IMG/VR virus record: IMGVR_UViG_3300017565_000033
Span: 1-36,213 of that record
DNA: 36,213 nt
DNA from: a virus
Taxonomy: Duplodnaviria > Caudoviricetes
Direction: 5' to 3' (one strand)
Shown here: one piece after another, positions 14,497 to 27,050 of the stretch
How the letters are laid out: every line of letters begins with the position of its first letter
How positions within the stretch are numbered: the first letter of the stretch is position 1
The notes under the pieces: model-generated
What the model saw: the letters and a program-made list of their open reading frames with translations, nothing else
Told to the model about the DNA's origin: nothing
The model's database searches: none
Program-made: the position numbers and the translations under genes

Positions 14497-15303
14497 CTAC
14501 ATCCCCAGGCTGGCCATCAGCTCGCGCAGCTCAGCCAGCGCACGCGCGAGCATCCGGTCAATGCGGCTCTTCGGCGCGCCCCATGCTTCGGCCACGGAGC
14601 GCACCGACTGCGCCGGGCGGTTGAGGCCGAACACGCGCGAGACGAGTTCTCGCTGCTGCGGGGCCAATCGACGCACGGCCTCCAACGCGAGGGCTCGACG
14701 CTCAGCCGCCAGCAGCTCCGCCTCGGGCGTGTCGCTGTCGGGCTCCAGGCATGACATTTCGCGGAGTGCGGATTCCAACTCGTCGACCCACGAATCATCG
14801 GCGGAAGCACCGTCCGAGAAGTGAGACGGTATGTCCATGCGGTGGACGCGCACGACGTTGCCTTCGTTGCTATGGATTGAACGCGCGGTGCGACGCTTGT
14901 GCGCGCCGTCGCTCAGGTGAACGTCGGTGCCGTGCAAGCGCGCGTACTGCTCGCAGGCAGCCCGCGCCCGGAAGTAGGCAACTTGGCCGAACGACTGCCG
15001 CCCCCTCATGGCGTCGTACTTGGACACCGCGCGAAGCACCGCCATGGCGGCAACTTGCGCGAGGTCATCAGGCGACAACGAGCCCGCGATGGGCAAGAGG
15101 GCCCCGACGATACGCCGGATGAGGGGCCTCACGGAGTCGAGCAACTCAGCGGACAACCGTCGTTCCAGCACGGCGTTGCCGCTCGCGCGGGCCGACAGGA
15201 TGCGGGATACGAGTTCGGATTGCCGGGCCGCTCGAAGGCCGTACGCACTGTGTGAAACATGCTTTTTCGCACTACCCTTGCGACAAATTGCTGCGTGAGA
15301 CAT
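14497..15303 (-). CDS. Phage-encoded sigma70-family RNA polymerase sigma factor
   Basis: Region 2 DDLAQVAAMAVLRAVSKYDAMRGRQSF; region 4 LAPQQRELVSRVFGL...SVRSVAEAWG...RALAELR. Start uncertain: ORF is open from ATG 15501. Confidence 0.85.
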   Translation of the reverse strand: MSHAAICRKGSAKKHVSHSAYGLRAARQSELVSRILSARASGNAVLERRLSAELLDSVRPLIRRIVGALLPIAGSLSPDDLAQVAAMAVLRAVSKYDAMRGRQSFGQVAYFRARAACEQYARLHGTDVHLSDGAHKRRTARSIHSNEGNVVRVHRMDIPSHFSDGASADDSWVDELESALREMSCLEPDSDTPEAELLAAERRALALEAVRRLAPQQRELVSRVFGLNRPAQSVRSVAEAWGAPKSRIDRMLARALAELRELMASLGM

Positions 15304-15429
15304 CGCCCCAACAAGAGCATGCCGCATGCCGACCACGCTCGATTCACAGACAGTCACAGACACGGTGATTGAACGCCTCGCCCGGAGTGGGCCACTCGAA
15401 CCCGGCCCTGCGGCACCACTGCCGCGCCC

Positions 15430-15539
15430 CCGGTAAATGCGTGTGGATTCCGTCAGCGGCTCACGCAAACTCGAAAGGTGGCGACGAAGGCGAGTCGGCA
15501 TGTCCCGAGTAGATGCGTGCGACTTCCGCGAACGACTCA
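15430..15539 (-). repeat. Two tandem leftward motif copies L4 (15430-15463) and L5 (15506-15539)
   Basis: TGAGCCGCTGACGGAATCCACACGCATTTACCGG and TGAGTCGTTCGCGGAAGTCGCACGCATCTACTCG, 76-bp period. Confidence 0.8.
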
Positions 15540-15642: not shown

Positions 15643-15703
15643 CTAAGGATTTGGGGGAACGCGCTCCAGTGCCGCATGACGCCGGACGCCCCGCCGCGAC
15701 AGC

Positions 15704-15898
15704 CGAGCCATTCGCGAAATCCGCACTCATTTACCAGGGGCGGCGCGACTGCCTGCCGCATCCGCCCGGCTGACGACTCCGTGGGCCATTCGGAAAATCC
15801 GCACCCATTTACCGGATGCCATGCACGTACCCCACACGCCTCCTGCCTCCGTCGCGCGCCTCGCTGAGCCACTCACAGAATCCGCACTCATTTACCCA
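15704..15898 (+). repeat. Three tandem rightward motif copies R1 (15704-15737), R2 (15782-15815), R3 (15865-15898)
   Basis: CGAGCCATTCGCGAAATCCGCACTCATTTACCAG, TGGGCCATTCGGAAAATCCGCACCCATTTACCGG, TGAGCCACTCACAGAATCCGCACTCATTTACCCA; periods 78 and 83 bp. Confidence 0.8.
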
Positions 15899-15901
15899 GG
15901 T

Positions 15902-18250
15902 ATGAGCCACACGCCAGACACCACGCGCCTGCGCGCCCTTCGGCTGAAGGTCGCCTTCTACGCGTCCGCCCAGGACAACATCCCCCAAGCCGCTGAGCTG
16001 TCGTGGCCCGAACTGTCAGCGAAACTCGTCTCTCACCGTCGGAGTCAGTGCGCCACGTCGCCGTGCGTCCGTGGCTGCCCCGGCAAGAATGGCCCCGCGT
16101 GGAGCCCGGTGGACATCGTCGAGCGACGCCGCTCGGAGAACGTGCGCGCCGTCACGGTGGCCGTCTTCGACCTCGACCACCTGACGGCGGCGCAGCTCGC
16201 GTGCCTCGACGCCGTCGAGCGCCATGGACTCGCCTTCGCCGTCCACTCGACGCACAGCAATCGCCCACCCGACGACTACTGCCTGCGGCTGGTGATGCCG
16301 TTGTCCCGGCCCGTGCTCCCGCGCGAGTGGTCGTCCGTGCGCGAGGCCGCAATCCGGATGCTCGGACTCCCCGCCGACCCGGCCACGAAGGACTTGGCGC
16401 GCATCTACTTCCTGCCCGACGCGCCCATGGCTACGGAGCCCTACGCGGCAAGTGGAGACGGAGCGCCCCTCGACGTCGACGCGCTGCTCGCCATGTCCCG
16501 GGCTGGACTTCCCACGGTGGCGGCCCCGGTGCCTTCCCCGAAGACCGAGGAACCCGCCGACCTGTACGAGCTGCGGGCCCTCCTGCGTCGCATTCGCAAG
16601 CCCGAGCACCTCGCCATCGTCCGCCGCGCCCTTGCCGGTGAGCCCCTGGCCCCCGTCGGCGAGCAGGACACGACGCTGAACACGCTGATGTCGTGCGCGG
16701 CCTTCGTCCTGCCACTGTCCACGCCCGAGGCCGTCGTCATCGAGCTGTTCCGCGCGTCCTTCGCGGCAACGGACTGGCGGGAAGAGACAGAGCACCTGTG
16801 CGAACAGGCCGTCCTCAAGCTGCGGCGCCACCGCGAGCGTAGGAAGGCGCGGGATGCCGCACGGCTGGCGGACAACACGGCAATCTGGGAGGCCCTGGGC
16901 AGTCGCGCTCCCGAGGCCGCGTCGAGCGACGGCCCGGGATTCGAGGAGGACGCGCCCGACCCCGACGCGTGGATGAAGGAACTCTTCCTCGACATCACAA
17001 AGGACACCCGACGGCAGATTCGAAACTGCGAAGCGAACGTCGCCATCGTGCTCGGCAAGTCGCCCGAGTGGCGCGGCGTCTTCCGCTTCAATGAAGTCAC
17101 GAAGAAGCTGGAGGTGGATGGCGGCCCCCTCGGCCCCAACGTGGACATTGAGACGCTCGACGTCCTCGTGGCCAACTGGATTCAGCTCAGCAAGTACGGG
17201 CGGCTTGGGCTGATGCCGAAGGCGCACGTCGTCGCACAGCAAATCCTCGCCGTGGCAAAGGCCAATAGCTACGACCCTGTCGCCGACTACCTCGCGGGAC
17301 TCGTCTGGGATGGAACGCCACGGCTCGACGGGATGCTCGCGACGTACTTCGGCGCACAGGGGGATGCTCGATACCTCCAGGCCGTCGGCGCGAAGTTCGC
17401 CATCTCCGCTGTCGCGCGTGCCTTGCGCCCCGGGTGCAAGGTCGACACGGTCATGATTCTGGAGGGGCCCCAGGGCCTACGTAAGTCGACGGCGTTCAGC
17501 ATCTTGGGGGGCCGATACTTCAGCGACGCCCCCATCGACGTCACCAGCAGGGACAGCGCCATGCTCGCCTCCCAATTCTGGTTCATCGAGCTGGCTGAGC
17601 TGAGCACGTTCCGCAAGAGCGAAGACCAGGCTCTCAAGGCGTTCATCACCCGGACGGAGGACACCTACCGGCCGCCCTACGGACGCTCCAACGTGCAGGC
17701 CCCGCGACGCTGCGTCTTCGTCGGGACGACCAACGATGACGACTACCTGCGCGACCCCACGGGACAGAGGCGCTTCTGGCCGGTGAAGTGCTCCCGCATC
17801 GACACCGACGCCCTCAAGCGCGACCGGGACCAAATCTGGGCCGAAGCCGTCGTGCGCTTCCACCAGGGCGAGGACTGGTGGCTGAGCAACGAGGAAGCGG
17901 CAGGGGCCGAGCAGCAAGCCGCGCTGCGCATGGAGAACGTGGGGGACAGCCGGAAGGAAGTCATCCTGCGGTGGATTCTGGAGATGCCACCCGAAAAGCG
18001 ACCCTCGGACGTGACGCTTCTCCATGTGGGCATCGAAGCCTTCGCGCTCCACCAAGCGCAGGTTGACCACCGAATCTCCCGGGAAATCGGCGCAGCATTG
18101 AAGTCGCTAGGCTTCACCCGTGGCCAGCGTCGGATGGGAGACGGGAAGCGCCCGCTCGTCTACTACGTCCCGGACGAACTGAAGAACGCGCCTATGGAGA
18201 AGCGCGGCGAGCGGCATGCCGGGTTTGGCCCCCCTGCCGGTTGCGGGTGA
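15902..18250 (+). CDS. Primase-helicase (N-terminal primase-like domain, C-terminal VirE/VapE-type P-loop NTPase)
   Basis: VFDLD and HSTHS primase-like motifs; LEGPQGLRKST Walker A, ELAEL, YRPPYGR, FVGTTN, DPTGQRRFWP. Alternative in-frame ATG at 15821. Confidence 0.88.
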   Translation: MSHTPDTTRLRALRLKVAFYASAQDNIPQAAELSWPELSAKLVSHRRSQCATSPCVRGCPGKNGPAWSPVDIVERRRSENVRAVTVAVFDLDHLTAAQLACLDAVERHGLAFAVHSTHSNRPPDDYCLRLVMPLSRPVLPREWSSVREAAIRMLGLPADPATKDLARIYFLPDAPMATEPYAASGDGAPLDVDALLAMSRAGLPTVAAPVPSPKTEEPADLYELRALLRRIRKPEHLAIVRRALAGEPLAPVGEQDTTLNTLMSCAAFVLPLSTPEAVVIELFRASFAATDWREETEHLCEQAVLKLRRHRERRKARDAARLADNTAIWEALGSRAPEAASSDGPGFEEDAPDPDAWMKELFLDITKDTRRQIRNCEANVAIVLGKSPEWRGVFRFNEVTKKLEVDGGPLGPNVDIETLDVLVANWIQLSKYGRLGLMPKAHVVAQQILAVAKANSYDPVADYLAGLVWDGTPRLDGMLATYFGAQGDARYLQAVGAKFAISAVARALRPGCKVDTVMILEGPQGLRKSTAFSILGGRYFSDAPIDVTSRDSAMLASQFWFIELAELSTFRKSEDQALKAFITRTEDTYRPPYGRSNVQAPRRCVFVGTTNDDDYLRDPTGQRRFWPVKCSRIDTDALKRDRDQIWAEAVVRFHQGEDWWLSNEEAAGAEQQAALRMENVGDSRKEVILRWILEMPPEKRPSDVTLLHVGIEAFALHQAQVDHRISREIGAALKSLGFTRGQRRMGDGKRPLVYYVPDELKNAPMEKRGERHAGFGPPAGCG

Positions 18251-18281
18251 GCCACTCGCGGGAACCGCACGCATTTAGGGA
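18248..18281 (+). promoter_or_regulatory. 34-bp phage motif copy R4
   Basis: TGAGCCACTCGCGGGAACCGCACGCATTTAGGGA; TGA is the primase stop; GTG 6 nt after CATTTA. Confidence 0.8.
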
Positions 18282-18283
18282 GG

Positions 18284-19630
18284 GTGACGCCTCCCGTCGA
18301 CATCCCGAAGCATGGCCCCTCCGTGATTGCCGGGGTCATCCAGCGATTGAGCGTCTCGCAGCTCAAGCGCCACAAGCTGTGTCCGCGTGCGTGGTTCTTT
18401 CAGAAGGTCATGCGCGTCTCCGAGCCCAGCACGGGAGCGCAACAGGTCGGCACCGAAGGGCACGCCCAGCTTGAGCACTTCCTTTCGACGGGCGAAGACG
18501 TGCTGGGCACATTCGCCAGGGCAGGCGCCCATCTTCTGCCCACGCCCGGTCCCGACCTGCTTATCGAGCAGCCCTTGAATGGTGAACCGCCGCTGATGGC
18601 TGGCGGCATCCCGTTCACCGGCTTCATCGACCTCGTAGACGCTCGACGACTCGCCTCTGACGGCGTCCTTCGCATCACCGACCACAAGTTCACCAGCAAC
18701 GTCGCGACGAATGCCGCGAGCGCCGAGCAGCTCGCCGACGCCGACACCGAACCGGGCTTGCAGATGGTCGGCTATGGCGCGTGGGCACTCAGCCAGGTTG
18801 CGCGCTTCCCGGGGCTGCGCACGCTGGAGCTTGAACACCTCTACTACCAGACCCGGGGACAGCGCCTTGCCGCGTCCGTCGTCGCAACGGTGCCCGCCGA
18901 GCACGTCGCGCACGAGTGGCAGACAAAGGTCGAGCCCCAAGTCGAAGCGATGAAAGAGCACGCGCAAGCCGCCCGCGCTTCCGACGTGCCCGCGAACTAC
19001 GGCCCCGCCTGCGGCAAGTACGGCGGATGTCCGTTCATGGCGAAGTGCCTCACAGGAGAGAACAAGACGATGTCCCTGCGTGACAAGCTGCTCAACAAGG
19101 CTTCCGAGTCCGCCCCCCTTACCGTTGCCGCGGTCGAGCGCGACGCCCCGGAGCTGCCCGCCGTTCTTCCCCCGGACGCGCCCACACCTACGCCCGTGCA
19201 GACGGCTCCGGAGGTCGCCCAGGCCACTGAGCAGCCCGCGCCGAAGCGTCGCGGTCGCCCTCGCAAGGCGGCCGAGTCCGAGCAGCCCACCGACGCGGCC
19301 CCGTCGCCTCCGAGCGCGCTTCGGGTGCTCTTCGTCGACTGCATCCCGACGACCTTCGACGGACCGACGCCCGAGTCGCTTACGAGCTACGTCGACACCA
19401 TGCATCGCAAGGTGGCCGAAGCGGGCGGCGTCGACGACGTGCGCTTCGCGGGCTCCGACTCGGCGCTCGGGTTCGGCAAGTGGCGAGGGGCGCTTGCCAT
19501 GGCGGCGCGCGCCGAACCGCCCGCCCCCGGCGCATACCTCGCGCTCGGGGTCGCCCAGTCGGAGCTGATGCAGGTCATCGTTGAGGCGCTTGAGCCGGCG
19601 TTCGACGTGGTCGTTCGCGGCACACGATAG
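18284..19630 (+). CDS. Cas4-like PD-(D/E)xK exonuclease with AT-hook linker and C-terminal domain
   Basis: LSVSQL..CPR, GFIDL, DHKF, QMVGY, Cys cluster CGKYGGCPFMAKC; PKRRGRPRK at 19241-19267. Confidence 0.8.
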   Translation: MTPPVDIPKHGPSVIAGVIQRLSVSQLKRHKLCPRAWFFQKVMRVSEPSTGAQQVGTEGHAQLEHFLSTGEDVLGTFARAGAHLLPTPGPDLLIEQPLNGEPPLMAGGIPFTGFIDLVDARRLASDGVLRITDHKFTSNVATNAASAEQLADADTEPGLQMVGYGAWALSQVARFPGLRTLELEHLYYQTRGQRLAASVVATVPAEHVAHEWQTKVEPQVEAMKEHAQAARASDVPANYGPACGKYGGCPFMAKCLTGENKTMSLRDKLLNKASESAPLTVAAVERDAPELPAVLPPDAPTPTPVQTAPEVAQATEQPAPKRRGRPRKAAESEQPTDAAPSPPSALRVLFVDCIPTTFDGPTPESLTSYVDTMHRKVAEAGGVDDVRFAGSDSALGFGKWRGALAMAARAEPPAPGAYLALGVAQSELMQVIVEALEPAFDVVVRGTR

Positions 19631-19698: not shown

Positions 19699-20769
19699 CT
19701 AGCTATCTTCCAACTCCATCCTGGCAGCGAATGTACGCTGAAACTCTTGATAGCGCGACCACGATTCCTTTCGCAGCAAATCCAAATCGAGTTCAACATA
19801 GTTCGTCCGCAGATGCGCCATCAACTCAGAGTACCCAACGCGGAGTTCTTGAACTTCACGTTGCGCCTTCTTGAAGTCCACTTCGGAGGCACGCGTTGGA
19901 AATAGATCTCCAGGCGTATCCCAAACACAAAAATCACCAACACCGCTCTTATAATGCTCCCCATGAGACATGACACTGCCCCACTGAACATGAAGTTTAC
20001 CCACAAGTTCCCTGGCAGTTTCGTCATACAGATGCGTCGACGATGCAGTCCAGAGTGTGTTGAAGTCCTCCCAGAACGTCAACACACTATCCTCAATACG
20101 GCGTGGCGCCTCCCTGAGCAGGCCATCGATCACATCCGGATTGACATATATCAGCAAACTCTGAAGCATCTTCAGGTCACGTTGCCTTCTTACGGCAGCC
20201 TCATCAACAACGGCAACAACAGGGCGCTCGGGCGAGGCACTGACGATTCCCTCCAACGCTCGCGTCAGGAACTTAGTCAACTCCCCTAAAGCACTGGCTA
20301 TTGAGCCTTTGTCCTTTTGTGCATCATCGCTCTGAGGGGGACACCTGAATGGGCCAATGGTCTTCTGCTTGATGTCAAAAGGAAGGCTATCAATCACACC
20401 AAGACTCACATTGGCAACCATCACCACTCGTTTCCATCCGAGCAGACCCGCCGCATACCCAAGTTCAATCAGCACATTGGGGTTCGGCATCTTACGGCCA
20501 ACGTTCGCGCCGCTGTTCACGATTGAGACATCAGCGACAAAAATATCTGATGCGCCTATTTTCCGGAAAATCGTATTAGGGATATCTGGACTTCCGGTCT
20601 CACCGCGTGTCGCCTCATCGAGATTCAATTGGACACCAGGGATTTTTGCCTCAACAGCGCTCGCCGCATTTCTCAAAGCACTCCTGATAAGATTCCGGCC
20701 ATGGCCATCTGGCTTTATGTCTGACTGCCAGGAATAAAACACATTTAGAGTCTTCAAATCGCTATCCAT
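19699..20769 (-). CDS. TIR/nucleoside deoxyribosyltransferase-like domain protein (candidate defence moron)
   Basis: VFYSWQSD, GSPDI..TIFRKI..SDIFVADVS, NPNVLIELGYA, LPFDI; visibly lower GC, antisense to its neighbours. Start uncertain: ORF is open from 20946. Confidence 0.7.
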   Translation of the reverse strand: MDSDLKTLNVFYSWQSDIKPDGHGRNLIRSALRNAASAVEAKIPGVQLNLDEATRGETGSPDIPNTIFRKIGASDIFVADVSIVNSGANVGRKMPNPNVLIELGYAAGLLGWKRVVMVANVSLGVIDSLPFDIKQKTIGPFRCPPQSDDAQKDKGSIASALGELTKFLTRALEGIVSASPERPVVAVVDEAAVRRQRDLKMLQSLLIYVNPDVIDGLLREAPRRIEDSVLTFWEDFNTLWTASSTHLYDETARELVGKLHVQWGSVMSHGEHYKSGVGDFCVWDTPGDLFPTRASEVDFKKAQREVQELRVGYSELMAHLRTNYVELDLDLLRKESWSRYQEFQRTFAARMELEDS

Positions 20770-20972
20770 AATGGGAAGCCGCCTTTCGTGGGCTAATGAA
20801 TACCGCTCAATGGGACTTAGCATGCTCTCCTGAAGAGAGTGAATGGTGTCGAAATTGACACTGGTCATTCTGAGTCCGCAGTAACCCACGAAAGCTCTTC
20901 GCCCGCCGCACATGAAGTCGCCGTATTGCAGCATCCCGGTCGACATTCCGACTAGCTCTACCCCAATCCACC

Positions 20973-22886: not shown

Positions 22887-22909
22887 CGAGGCCACATGAC
22901 GCCACGATG

Positions 22910-24091
22910 TTAAAACGGAATGTTGTCGTCGTCGTCCGCAGTCGGAGTCGGAACCGGAGTCACTTCGGGGCCGTCAGGAGGAATAGCGTTGAGAAGAAGG
23001 TCAGCGTGGGCCATAAGCCAGTCGTGAGCAGCATCTGTCAGGCGGTGCCCGAAAGCGCGCTCATCCTCATCGAAGAAGCCTTCAATGAAGCCACGGCGCT
23101 TCAGACCTATAAACCCAATATTAAAAAGAGCATGCTCCCCTCGCGGCATCTCATTTCTAATCGCATAATCTCGAAAAACATCGTTTGTCTCCTTGATTAT
23201 ATTCGTAAGCACCTTCAATTCCGCTGGATGCAATCCTTCCACATTCGAGTCTACCGCGTTACGTCCTGAGGCCCACTCGGCTCTCCGGCGAGCTTTGAGT
23301 TGAACCCTCACTTCTTGTAGCGCCGCAACCACCTCATCCATTGACTGCGGGCGTTCAGCGATTGTTATTGCCGTCATCTTATCGACAAGACTCTCCCAAA
23401 CACTCGGCACCTGATACCTAAACCCAGCCACAGGATGCTTCCCTGTCGTCATATACACGACGGCCTGCCCCAATCCATAGATATCGGCATGATAAGTTGC
23501 CTCATGCGCATCATACACCAGGATTTCAGGTGCCATGTAACCGGGAGTTCCAAGTATGCCCTGAGTCTTTGGCACACTCGACTGTCCTTTGGGCTTCTTA
23601 ACAAGCCCGAAGTCACTGACAACCCAACGCTCGCCCATGCGAAGAATGTTGTTGGGCGTTACGTCGCGGTGCACAAGCCCAACAGCATGGGCCGCTGCCA
23701 AGCCCTTCGCAGCTTGAGTCATCGCCTCAATTCGCTCTTCGTCACATAGTTCCGGAGCAAGACTCGTCAAGGTCCCATCCGCCAGTGGCATTGCATACCA
23801 GTCATCCCCCGCGTCTCGAATTTCGATAACATGCTGGTGATGCAATGCCTGGAGAATCACAATCTCGCGAGCAAACCGGCGAAGCTCTTCCCCGCCTGAC
23901 CAGTTCGGCACCTTCAGTGCGAGTTCCTCGCCAGTGCGGAGGTCGCGAACTTTAAAGACCTCGGCAAAGCCCCCGCTCCCGAGCGTGCCGATCTTTTTGT
24001 ACCGCTCCTCCCAGTTGAACCTGGGCGCAGATTCCGCCCCTGAGTGTTGAGAGGTCAGTGGAAGGCTAGCGCTTTTCGATTGGCTCCCCAT
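22910..24091 (-). CDS. Hanks-type Ser/Thr protein kinase with C-terminal winged-helix-like domain and DDDDNIPF tail
   Basis: LGSGGFAEV, ALK, HRDVTPNN, DFG, GTPGYMAPE, DIYGLG; lower GC, antisense. Start at ATG 24091 or GTG 24133. Confidence 0.9.
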   Translation of the reverse strand: MGSQSKSASLPLTSQHSGAESAPRFNWEERYKKIGTLGSGGFAEVFKVRDLRTGEELALKVPNWSGGEELRRFAREIVILQALHHQHVIEIRDAGDDWYAMPLADGTLTSLAPELCDEERIEAMTQAAKGLAAAHAVGLVHRDVTPNNILRMGERWVVSDFGLVKKPKGQSSVPKTQGILGTPGYMAPEILVYDAHEATYHADIYGLGQAVVYMTTGKHPVAGFRYQVPSVWESLVDKMTAITIAERPQSMDEVVAALQEVRVQLKARRRAEWASGRNAVDSNVEGLHPAELKVLTNIIKETNDVFRDYAIRNEMPRGEHALFNIGFIGLKRRGFIEGFFDEDERAFGHRLTDAAHDWLMAHADLLLNAIPPDGPEVTPVPTPTADDDDNIPF

Positions 24092-24309
24092 TAGGCGATC
24101 AACCGACCGCCCCTTCGGAAAGTCAAGGCGCACGCCCCCCCTATTGTTGCTCTGCTCATTTCGAACAGCTCGCTACGAAATCACGCGGCTCTACTGTCAC
24201 ATCAACTAACTGCCATAGCTGTCGGCACGGCGACCACCTAGCCCCACACTTAACGCATTGGGCTATGATAAGTGTGCTTCGCTCGCCACAAGTGGACGGC
24301 GCGTCACAT

Positions 24310-24343
24310 CGGGCCACTCCCAGAATCCGCACGCATTTACGTG
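24310..24343 (+). promoter_or_regulatory. 34-bp phage motif copy R5
   Basis: CGGGCCACTCCCAGAATCCGCACGCATTTACGTG upstream of the SSB-like gene. Confidence 0.8.
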
Positions 24344-24395: not shown

Positions 24396-24926
24396 ATGAA
24401 CAACGCATTGACGAAGATTGCCACCGCGCAGGCTGCGGCTGGCGGACGCTACCCGCGCTTCGGTCGCTACCTGCTCGAAGTCGAGGTCATCCGCACGAAG
24501 GAGGGCTTCAAGGGCGACTCGGCCATCGCCGAGCTGAAGGTTCGCGAGTCCGAGGCCCTCGCGGGTGGCGAGACTCCGAGCCGACCGGGCGAGACGGTCG
24601 ACTACGTCGAGAACCTGAGCGACCAGAAGAAGGGCGGCGGCGGGCGCTTCAAGTCCTTCCTGATGACGCTCGTGGGGGCCGACGAGTACGAGTTCGCCAA
24701 CCCGGCCGCCCTGAAGAAGTTCTTCGACGAGCGGCAGGCGGGCACCCACCTCCTGATTCGCTGCGAGGTCTTCCCGAAGCAGCTCCCCGCAAAGGAGGGC
24801 CACGCCGGGAAGGTCATCAGCGGCTACCGCTGGTCGCACGTCGAGCTGAACGACGAGCAGCTCGCCCAGGTCGAGCACGCACGCAAGGCGAGCAAGCTCC
24901 CCGCGCTCGCCGACGCCCTCGCCTGA
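24396..24926 (+). CDS. Putative single-stranded DNA-binding protein
   Basis: 176 aa between helicase and DNA polymerase; beta-strand pattern (GRYLLEVEVI) compatible with an OB fold; no acidic tail. Mostly synteny-based. Confidence 0.5.
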   Translation: MNNALTKIATAQAAAGGRYPRFGRYLLEVEVIRTKEGFKGDSAIAELKVRESEALAGGETPSRPGETVDYVENLSDQKKGGGGRFKSFLMTLVGADEYEFANPAALKKFFDERQAGTHLLIRCEVFPKQLPAKEGHAGKVISGYRWSHVELNDEQLAQVEHARKASKLPALADALA

Positions 24927-25009: not shown

Positions 25010-27019
25010 GTGAGTGTCTGGTCCTTCGACACGGAAACGTGGCTGATTCAGCCCGGCTTGCTCGCGCCCCCTCTCGTGTGCGGCAGCATCGCTGCGGCGG
25101 CTCCAGGCAGCGAACGACTGCTCGACAAGGCCCAAGCCCGGCAGTTCTTCCGCGAGGCCATCGCCGCACCTGACACGCACCTTGTCGGCGCAAACCTCGC
25201 CTACGACCTGGGCGTCATGGCGGCGGATGACCCGCGCTTCGTGGCGCCCATCTTCGCGGCGCTCGAAGCGGGCCGCCTGCATTGCGTCCAGATTCGCGAA
25301 GCGCTCATCGACATCGCGCGGGGGCTGTACGGCGTGGACCCGTCAACGGGGCGGAAGCTCGACGATGACGAAGGCGCCCGCTACCCGCTCGCGCTTCTCG
25401 TGCAGCGCTACCTGGGGTTCGACATCAGCGAGGACAAGAAGAACCCGAAGGCATGGCGGCTTCGCTACGCGGAACTCGACGGCGTGCCTGTCGAGCGCTG
25501 GCCGACGGAAGCTGCGGAGTACCCGAAGCGCGATGCCCGCTACACGCTCGACGTCTTCTTCCGGCAGGAGGCCGTTGCCCGCGAGACGTCCAACGACGGC
25601 AACCTGCACGCCGAAGCCGACCAGATGCGCGCCGCGTTCGCGCTCCACCTCGCTTCCATCTGGGGTCTCCGGACGAACGGCGACTCGGTAGCCGTGCTGC
25701 GGGAGCGGGTGGAACGGGAGTGGGGAGAGAACCGGGCCAAGTTCCAGGCGGCAGGCATCTACCGGGCCGACGGCACGAAGGATTCGAAGCGCCTTGCCGC
25801 GCTCGTCACTGCCGCCTACGACGGGCAACCGCCCATCACCGCGCCTAGCGACAGGTTCCCCGAAGGCCAGGTCGCGACCGACCGCGACACACTGCTGGGC
25901 TCCGGAGACGCACTTCTCGAAGACCTGGGGAAGAGCGGGCGCGTCGACAAGTACAAGTCCACCTACCTGGACGTCGTCGAGGCGGGCACTTCGCTCCCCA
26001 TCAATCCGCGCTTCAACGTGCTCGTCAGCACCACGCGCGTTTCGAGTGACTACCAGCAGCTCCCCCAGAAGGGCGGCATCCGTGAGGTCCACGAGGCCCG
26101 TCCCGGCTTCGTCTACTGCTCGGTCGACTACGGTGGGCTTGAGCTTCGCACCATGGCTCAGCGGGCCATCTGGGAACTCGGCTTCTCGAAGATGGCCGAA
26201 GCGCTGAACAGCGGGCTCGACGTCCACACCCTTGCCGCAGCCGAATTCCTCGGGGCGAGCTACGACGAGCTGCTTCCGAAGGTGAAGGCGAAAGAGCCCC
26301 TCGCGGTCGCCTTCCGGCAGCTCGCGAAGATTCTCAACTTCGGCAAGGGCGGCGGGATGACGGGCGGCTCGCTCGTCTACAACGCGCGCGCGAAGGACCG
26401 GGTTTCCTTCTGCCTGCTGGCGAAGCGCGCAGACGTCTGCGGCGTCGAGCGCGTCGTTGTCACCGTGCAGCGCAAGCCGAAGAGAGTCTGCCGGGCCTGC
26501 GTCGAGGTCGCGAAGGAACTGGACACGAAGTGGCTCAACGCGTGGCCCGAGCAGCGCGAGCTACAGCACCGGGCGAAGTCACGCACCTACGGGGGCGGGT
26601 TCGCCGACGTGATGATTCCGGGTGCGAACATCCTGCGTGGCGGGTGCGGCTACACGCAAATCCTCAACACGCCATTCCAGGGGCTCGGGGCTGTCGGGTG
26701 CAAGCTCGCCATGTGGCGCGTCAGCCGCGAGATGTACGTCGACCGCCGCTCGCCGCTCTACGGCTCGCGACTCGTCCTCATGGTGCATGACGAGCTGATT
26801 AGCGAGCTGCTCGCCGATGACGCTCAGCGGATGCACGACGCAGCCGAGCGCAAGGCGTACCTGATGCGCGAAGCAATGAAGGAAACGACTCCCGACCTGG
26901 CACCGGCAATCGAAGCTGAACCTGCGCTGTCTCGCATCATGTCGAAGGACGTCGCCACCGTGCGCGACAGCTCCGGGCAGCTGCTCGTCTGGGAGCCGCC
27001 CACGAAGCGTGCTGCCTGA
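25010..27019 (+). CDS. Phage family A DNA polymerase with 3'-5' exonuclease domain
   Basis: ExoI FDTET, ExoII NLAYD, ExoIII YPKRD; motif A DYGGLELR, motif B RQLAKILNFG, motif C VHDE. Confidence 0.93.
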   Translation: MSVWSFDTETWLIQPGLLAPPLVCGSIAAAAPGSERLLDKAQARQFFREAIAAPDTHLVGANLAYDLGVMAADDPRFVAPIFAALEAGRLHCVQIREALIDIARGLYGVDPSTGRKLDDDEGARYPLALLVQRYLGFDISEDKKNPKAWRLRYAELDGVPVERWPTEAAEYPKRDARYTLDVFFRQEAVARETSNDGNLHAEADQMRAAFALHLASIWGLRTNGDSVAVLRERVEREWGENRAKFQAAGIYRADGTKDSKRLAALVTAAYDGQPPITAPSDRFPEGQVATDRDTLLGSGDALLEDLGKSGRVDKYKSTYLDVVEAGTSLPINPRFNVLVSTTRVSSDYQQLPQKGGIREVHEARPGFVYCSVDYGGLELRTMAQRAIWELGFSKMAEALNSGLDVHTLAAAEFLGASYDELLPKVKAKEPLAVAFRQLAKILNFGKGGGMTGGSLVYNARAKDRVSFCLLAKRADVCGVERVVVTVQRKPKRVCRACVEVAKELDTKWLNAWPEQRELQHRAKSRTYGGGFADVMIPGANILRGGCGYTQILNTPFQGLGAVGCKLAMWRVSREMYVDRRSPLYGSRLVLMVHDELISELLADDAQRMHDAAERKAYLMREAMKETTPDLAPAIEAEPALSRIMSKDVATVRDSSGQLLVWEPPTKRAA

Positions 27020-27050
27020 GCCACGCCCGGAATCCGCACCCATTTAGGGA
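27017..27050 (+). promoter_or_regulatory. 34-bp phage motif copy R6
   Basis: TGAGCCACGCCCGGAATCCGCACCCATTTAGGGA; TGA is the polymerase stop. Confidence 0.8.

Follow-up and report, generated by a model that had tools for sequence, protein, structure and literature searches.

The window analyzed here, the whole 36,213-nucleotide stretch of viral DNA, encodes a temperate tailed phage with head and tail genes, a sigma-like gene, a VapE primase-helicase, an exonuclease, a helicase, an SSB-like gene, PolA, an excisionase, and an integrase. This myxobacterial prophage also carries a protein kinase with a C-terminal copy of the docking tip of bacterial SSB. The kinase gene occupies a minus-strand open reading frame at 22910..24133, which encodes 407 amino acids from a GTG codon and has the C terminus PEVTPVPTPTADDDDNIPF, followed by a TAA stop. 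Residue 15 is a Met at which the homologs and the Atlas record start, so the true start is probably nucleotide 24091, giving a product of 393 residues (22910..24091, minus strand). Residue numbers below refer to the 407-residue frame.

Architecture of the kinase and its cargo slot

The Hanks-type kinase domain (23348..24013, minus strand) has intact motifs: G-loop, K74, E90, HRD155-157, N162, DFG174-176, APE, D217, and R261. Among 24 aligned family proteins, K74, E90, H155-R156-D157, N162, D174-F175-G176, P202-E203, D217, and R261 are invariant (24/24), and the Pfam Pkinase profile matches residues 45 to 238 with 110.6 bits against a cut-off of 31.7. The catalytic loop reads HRDV[TS]PxN; Lys occupies the T/S position in most Ser/Thr kinases. 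Top Foldseek matches of the kinase model are ePK domains, including that of PknB, and a viral fold search with the model returned generic kinases only. Judged by these motifs, the protein is a Hanks-type (ePK-like) protein kinase with intact catalytic residues and predicted activity. Ahead of the domain, a Ser-rich motif (residues 19 to 30; 24044..24079, minus strand; consensus SxSxSIPLTxQH) lies in an arm predicted to be disordered (pLDDT <50). Its S21 and H30 are invariant in 24/24 aligned proteins and its column identity is 0.74, making it a possible autophosphorylation or docking element.

An AlphaFold2 model built on a 24-row alignment (mean pLDDT 80) places a helix (residues 265 to 297), a winged helix, and a disordered end (residues 385 to 407) after the kinase. 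The helix (23243..23341, minus strand) is 33 residues long, contains an invariant R283, and links the kinase to the winged helix domain, or wHTH (residues 300 to 382; 22988..23236, minus strand). This MarR-like domain is modeled with three helices and a beta wing, in the order helix-helix-helix-wing-helix over residues 303 to 382, resembles wHTH clusters in the Atlas (TM 0.52-0.62), and is homologous to the wHTH of a sister family of NDT-like proteins. The domain carries a net acidic charge, and acidic residues of its wing are conserved; the charge runs from -5 to +1 in the kinases and from -4 to -8 in the NDT sisters. The kinase wHTH also retains a basic patch (R50 of the profile, 15/16), and an Arg that follows the third helix is conserved. 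A Pro/Thr-rich, disordered, unconserved spacer (residues 383 to 399; 22937..22987, minus strand) then leads to the tip, DDDDNIPF (22913..22936, minus strand), which abuts the stop codon. A first-pass annotation made from the letters of the window had proposed this same succession of kinase, helical linker, winged-helix-like domain, Pro/Thr spacer, and DDDDNIPF-stop, and the open reading frame, the Pkinase match, and the AlphaFold2 model bear it out.

The tip has what defines an SSB C terminus: a free terminal Phe, a penultimate Pro, an acidic run, and a disordered spacer. It follows the order described for SSB (PMC10164576), an acidic run, an aliphatic residue, Pro, and a free terminal Phe after a disordered spacer, but it is attached to an enzyme without an OB fold and has Asn at position -4. 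In single-chain models of both the kinase and the NDT-sister families the tail is undocked (pLDDT 37-50 and 43-54), and self-docking of the tail was seen in neither model.

The gene had been described as lower in GC than its surroundings, antisense, and divergent from an SSB-like gene ending PALADALA, and all of this is confirmed. Its GC content is 0.55 versus 0.66-0.71 in flanking phage genes, and it is convergent with the phage helicase (20973..22886, plus strand; phrog_62) and divergent from the SSB-like gene (24396..24926, plus strand). The latter is DUF669-like, lacks an acidic aromatic tip, and owes its name to DUF669-type phage clusters that it resembles in the Atlas (score 0.94-0.95); it has no Pfam or PHROG match. 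Compared with homologous loci L081, L167, and L169, the kinase gene shows a dN/dS of about 0.17-0.19. Scans for a sigma-70 promoter, terminator, tRNA/tmRNA, and Rfam families gave no match.

Helicase and SSB-like gene border a hypervariable, low-GC cargo slot (22887..24298). Across 17 related prophage loci, the interval between these two genes ranges from about 100 to 2,900 bases; one locus is empty, in one (L149) the kinase occupies the corresponding position in the same orientation, and the others hold different low-GC genes, among them NTPase, PIN, HNH, ResIII-helicase, and ParA-like genes. A PADLOC and Pfam scan of 30 chosen ORFs, the largest per slot, gave PADLOC matches for slot occupants in 8/17 loci, of which only PD-T7-3 (L137, 495 bits) was strong and full length. 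Slot occupants with neither a Pfam nor a PADLOC match (L134:4498-5664, L138:5708-6874, L139:5278-6318, L143:5709-6803, and L147:6115-6900) are candidates for new defense genes. A neighboring variable slot holds another low-GC cargo gene in the window (19699..20946, minus strand; 415 amino acids, GC 0.51), whose weak match to a CAP12-type TIR (PF10137, E 0.0015) falls below cut-off. In relatives this slot holds SieB or unknown genes.

Outside these 17 loci, kinase homologs keep similar company. Three of seven further metagenome loci of the family, two of them nearly identical, abut the same helicase end and are prophage remnants. Another of the seven lies antisense between the genes of a type I REase and MTase (L173; 805 and 707 bits), and a further homolog is near HNH, XRE-IrrE, and PIN genes (L001). 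Such context follows the pattern of accessory defense genes; we judge it probable, by a good margin, that the gene acts against phages.

Several features of these loci deserve separate mention. At L169:5643-7644 an intact kinase persists in a decayed prophage, flanked by short remnants of the integrase and helicase, as though the host had kept it. L173:2981-4138 (plus strand) encodes a divergent homolog in which the wHTH runs directly into SDPPF with no spacer. Six plus-strand copies of a motif with the core GAGCCAYTC-n3-GAATCCGCACnCATTTAC lie in the window at 15693-15734, 15771-15812, 15854-15895, 18237-18278, 24299-24340, and 27006-27047, preceding replication genes. The copy at 24299 marks where the slot ends on the right, and 10/10 aligned prophages retain it. 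This motif is likely a phage promoter or operator and perhaps serves the sigma-like gene at 14497-15501. The exonuclease frame (window 18284-19630, plus strand) continues into a second part from MSLRDKLL (nucleotide 19067) that is a separate ORF in L081.

Conservation of the tip and of its winged helix

Of the 26 top matches from the first family search, P0015 and P0020 stop short of the wHTH; the full-length alignment excludes them and comprises 24 proteins, query included, at 38-64% identity. P406 and F407 are invariant in 24/24, and column identity is 0.79 in the tip versus 0.32 in the spacer. As a query bearing the tail would bias any count of tails, a 16-row profile confined to the wHTH was built and run over 1.84 billion representatives. 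It gave 18 matches, 17 of them ending acidic-x-PF. Six had been found previously; of the 12 new ones, 11 have the tip, and the other, P0128, was rejected as an ankyrin false positive. L157 was discarded as a spurious frame, and an LKRNVV-like stretch in L138 was considered and rejected as an antisense copy of the tail.

The tail was checked in homologs, as had been proposed: the acidic-x-PF ending is present in 34/34 family proteins (a set that includes five N-terminally incomplete ones) versus 0/93 other kinases from the first search. Only 15 of 4,979 distinct frame ends (at least 150 amino acids, from the fetched loci) have such a tail, and all 15 belong to family kinases, sister NDT proteins, or SSBs. 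These comparisons of sequence indicate that the kinase tip is under selection. It varies within limits, with Asn at -4 in 7/34 (including the window kinase) and an APF ending in 7/34. The family is sparsely distributed. Full-length homologs occurred at one of 80 GTDB loci and one of 52 IMG/VR loci, phage collections gave no full-length match, and a word-indexed search with residues 290 to 407 found the query alone. Named close homologs come from Cystobacter, Stigmatella, and Myxococcus.

The tail-less profile also matched proteins of another type. A sample of 401 Myxococcota genomes gave three wHTH matches, namely the kinase of the center genome, L158, and one that was spurious, and the large search added P0130 and P0132. 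L158, P0130, and P0132 combine a nucleoside-deoxyribosyltransferase-like N-domain with the same wHTH and the same tip. Homology of the two winged helices is well supported (hhalign 97.8%, E 1.1e-12, 83 columns). A search with the L158 protein gave 1,818 proteins at E <=0.001, a number that may include matches to the N-domain alone; among the best 120 of these, 115 score at least 10 bits with the kinase wHTH profile, 98 end in PF, 109 end in F, and 9 end in neither F nor W. These last nine indicate that the wHTH may work without the tip. The sister protein is modeled as two folded domains followed by a loose tail: the N-domain has the MilB/NDT/TIR fold (best Z 14.5, rmsd 3.0, 131 aligned), and the C-domain matches a MarR protein (Z 11.3, rmsd 2.1, 92 aligned).

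Like the kinases, the sister proteins (the P0133 family) have this wHTH and tip, are accessory and low in GC, and occupy prophage slots or neighbor AbiGi-like or R-M genes; they differ in their effector, an NDT/MilB/TIR-fold domain with an invariant Glu in place of a kinase, and in a broader range, with named matches in Clostridium, Desulfomonile, and Proteobacteria. The genes are low-GC inserts in 7/7 viral contigs found, and L158 adjoins an AbiGi-like gene. Both families are rare per genome: NDT-wHTH carriers numbered 0/251, 0/251, and 1/201 (the one truncated) in genomes sampled across phyla, Bacteroidota being outside the sample, and plasmid and phage collections gave no NDT-wHTH match. 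The family as a whole (L158:1042-1839, plus strand; P0133-P0252; L159-L165; L279; L280) is widespread and uncharacterized, has an invariant NPNVWxELG motif, and is a strong defense candidate in itself.

Exchange is also seen on the kinase side. A kinase-domain tree of 40 rows contains a clade of 28 (support 100/96), 21 with the module and 7 without, and 6 of these 7 share another C-terminal domain. This domain, of about 180 amino acids, replaces the wHTH and tip in the close kinases P0028, P0029, P0032, P0033, P0035, and P0037 and probably in L002-L015; its carriers are Polyangia and probably also actinomycetes, and it is a candidate for an alternative sensor. Effector and C-terminal part thus recombine both ways, as would be expected of an effector and a sensor. 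The wHTH and tip, as their sequences indicate, form a portable module on two unrelated effectors, an arrangement that is new in this analysis, and fusion of the module to an unrelated enzyme makes it likely to be a portable sensor. The first-pass annotation had singled out the tail, which stands, and had missed that wHTH and tip travel together.

Host SSBs and known defense systems

The tail had been proposed to mimic that of bacterial SSB, and the comparison with myxobacterial SSBs agrees: among best-scoring loci, 32/32 parsed tails end acidic-x-PF (25 IPF, 4 VPF, 2 FPF, and 1 LPF), two further loci having failed to parse. Neither Asn at -4 nor an APF ending occurs in these 32 sampled SSBs (0/32), and in these two respects the kinase family follows the tip sequence less strictly than host SSBs do. 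Four genomes contain both an intact module and a parsed SSB, and the last three residues agree in 4/4. In G001, G035, and G368, module and SSB both end in IPF, which says little because that ending is common. In G349, an NDT-wHTH-tip protein and the host SSB both end DDFPF, and FPF ends only 1/31 other SSBs and 3/120 NDT sister proteins; this is the single informative host match. A host-matched tip would suit readers from host and phage equally well.

A PADLOC check, also suggested at the outset, found recognizable kinase relatives and no full-length match to a known defense kinase. The best score was that of PD-T4-6 (128.5 bits, residues 42 to 236), and no listed model passes residue 323. The Stk2 profile scored 68 bits over residues 46 to 300, covering model positions 127-382 of 500, short of full length. 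MAD6 (99.3 versus 460 bits) and PglW (31.9 versus 990) remained below their family cut-offs. Partner genes of KKP, MADS, and BREX are absent, as the kinase is a single gene in its slot, with no phosphatase there. By full-length, cut-off, and partner-gene tests, membership in the Stk2, PD-T4-6, MAD6, PglW, and KKP families was rejected.

Analogy may still be useful. Stk2 is likewise a stand-alone Hanks kinase, but the match to it is confined to kinase and helix, and the Stk2 literature consulted reports no wHTH-plus-SSB-tip module. Its proposed mode of action is phage-triggered, broad phosphorylation leading to cell death (PMC6532042), and it is cited as an abortive infection (Abi) system targeting phage recombinases (PMC11846896). 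933W Stk, PD-T4-6, and KKP share with the window kinase a prophage location; kinases of the 933W Stk/KKP type are described as prophage encoded and as produced by the lysogen to counter heterologous phages (PMC8008677, PMC11341870), although KKP needs two kinases and a phosphatase that are absent at the window slot. At most, the window kinase may work like Stk2 or 933W Stk without being a member of either family.

A parallel at the level of the tip is DRT10, whose activation is also tied to the SSB-tip interface. A phage SSB-like protein ending FDDDIPF is reported to be needed as its trigger, and competition with ExoI has been proposed (10.64898/2026.04.29.721553). In that system the phage trigger bears the tip, whereas here the putative immune protein does. 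The literature searched, with most subscription journals and supplementary tables outside it, describes no immune protein with an SSB-tip decoy; tables of large defense screens could list the NDT family.

Possible roles of the tip

The tip and its module are real and conserved, and it is their function that we infer. In the pockets that bind SSB tips, the terminal Phe is buried and the acidic residues are recognized (PMC10164576), and we consider it highly probable that the kinase tip is read by such a pocket. Phage annealases and recombinases are among the readers described in the literature: Red-beta binds the E. coli SSB tip with a Kd of about 10.6 micromolar, and binding is lost with F177A (PMC6393309); Sak4 requires the last six residues of its SSB (PMC5928155); the ring-forming Sak requires the last seven (PMC11846896); and RecT function has been mined by host tip identity (PMC13490951).

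Since phage annealases read SSB tips and Stk2 is cited as targeting phage recombinases, we favor, at a probability of about 0.45, a reading in which the kinase is a single-gene abortive infection defense whose wHTH and tip form a swappable sensor, the tip being bait for phage readers of SSB tails. The lysogen would make the kinase in a resting state. Host tip readers, taking one tip at a time and occupied by abundant SSB, would leave it quiet in uninfected cells. A superinfecting phage would make oligomeric SSB-tip readers, most plausibly annealases or recombinases of the RecT/Red-beta, Sak, or Sak4 types, that could bind several kinase tips at once. Clustering, aided by the wHTH and long helix, would then allow trans-autophosphorylation, and the activated kinase might phosphorylate host proteins broadly, causing growth arrest or death. 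Counting against such bait are the kinase tips that are looser than those of host SSBs, the 9/120 best NDT sisters without an aromatic end, the single informative host match with its equal fit to a host reader, and the single strong full-length hit among the eight slot occupants that PADLOC matched.

What the carrier phage itself encodes bears on this reading. It had been suggested that the tail-less SSB-like neighbor could allow self-avoidance. As an adaptation this is rejected, because the acidic aromatic tip is absent from the SSB-like gene in 17/17 relatives, 16 of which have no kinase; the tail-less neighbor is a background trait that may permit carriage and gives no sign of co-adaptation. 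If the tip is bait, what matters is the carrier's missing tip reader rather than the SSB-like tail. Scans of four overlapping sets of window ORFs (33, 27, 25, and 82 of the 220) gave no HMM match to RecT, ERF, Sak, or AAA_24, a blank result that is weakly compatible with a carrier that would not trip its own bait.

A pocket could also hold the kinase off. If the tip sat in a host SSB-interacting protein or in the kinase's own wHTH, a flood of phage SSB tips or loss of the host partner would release the enzyme, an arrangement that we regard as unlikely while taking it seriously. The winged helix of RecQ binds the SSB tip, and the kinase wHTH retains a basic patch (R50 of the profile, 15/16); moreover, the tip is of host type, and the SSB-like protein of the carrier, being tail-less, would leave such a latch closed. 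DRT10 offers a precedent for competition at the SSB-tip interface (10.64898/2026.04.29.721553). However, the wHTH is net acidic, the L173 tip directly follows its wHTH without a spacer, and the tail is undocked in the single-chain models of both families, although this last point is weak and speaks to self-latching only.

Host readers of SSB tips are numerous (PMC10164576), and the tip, which matches host SSB, might merely localize the enzyme to host replication and repair proteins, which it would phosphorylate once another element, perhaps the wHTH or the N-terminal motif, had sensed infection or DNA damage. Some NDT sisters keep the wHTH without the tip, as such an address might allow, but close kinases swap the entire wHTH and tip rather than the tip alone. 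The bait reading gains over an address because the same module is fused to an NDT/TIR-like domain, which is predicted to act on nucleotides and needs no docked protein substrates. We consider the address rather improbable.

Prophage kinases can control prophage induction (PMC11341870), and this kinase gene is amid replication genes. It could regulate lysogeny or host replication in favor of the prophage, something that the KKP kinase module does in part. Its presence in 1/17 related prophages, with nucleases and NTPases in its place elsewhere, the homologs in a type I R-M operon and beside HNH/PIN genes outside this phage, and the lack of a phosphatase partner in the slot make such a role quite improbable. 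That the tip is a stability or degradation signal or a solubility tag that never meets an SSB-tip pocket deserves very little credence: part of the family does depart from the host consensus at -4 and -3, but the terminal Pro-Phe is invariant in 34/34, the acidic run and flexible spacer are kept, the same tip is on the NDT sister family, and the rare FPF is common to the G349 module and host SSB.

Returning to the tip as bait, a generalization may be offered, more tentatively than the reading of the window kinase itself. Proteins that join an effector, a wHTH, and an SSB tip could be an unrecognized class of single-gene immune receptors with an integrated decoy, its tip tuned to the host lineage, that catch ring-forming phage recombination or replication proteins, the shared wHTH switching on interchangeable effectors (a kinase or an NDT/TIR-like nucleotide hydrolase). 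How single-gene defense kinases and other Abi proteins sense phages is mostly unexplained, and a host docking peptide on an immune protein would be a simple answer, one built from a small module found on two unrelated effectors. Phage annealases cannot easily stop reading SSB tips. Several unrelated defense systems are described as tripped by phage recombinases through unclear mechanisms (PMC11846896), and an integrated decoy, if that reading is true, would explain why. For the myxobacterial prophage family itself, the kinase gene marks a putative defense hotspot with largely unannotated cargo.
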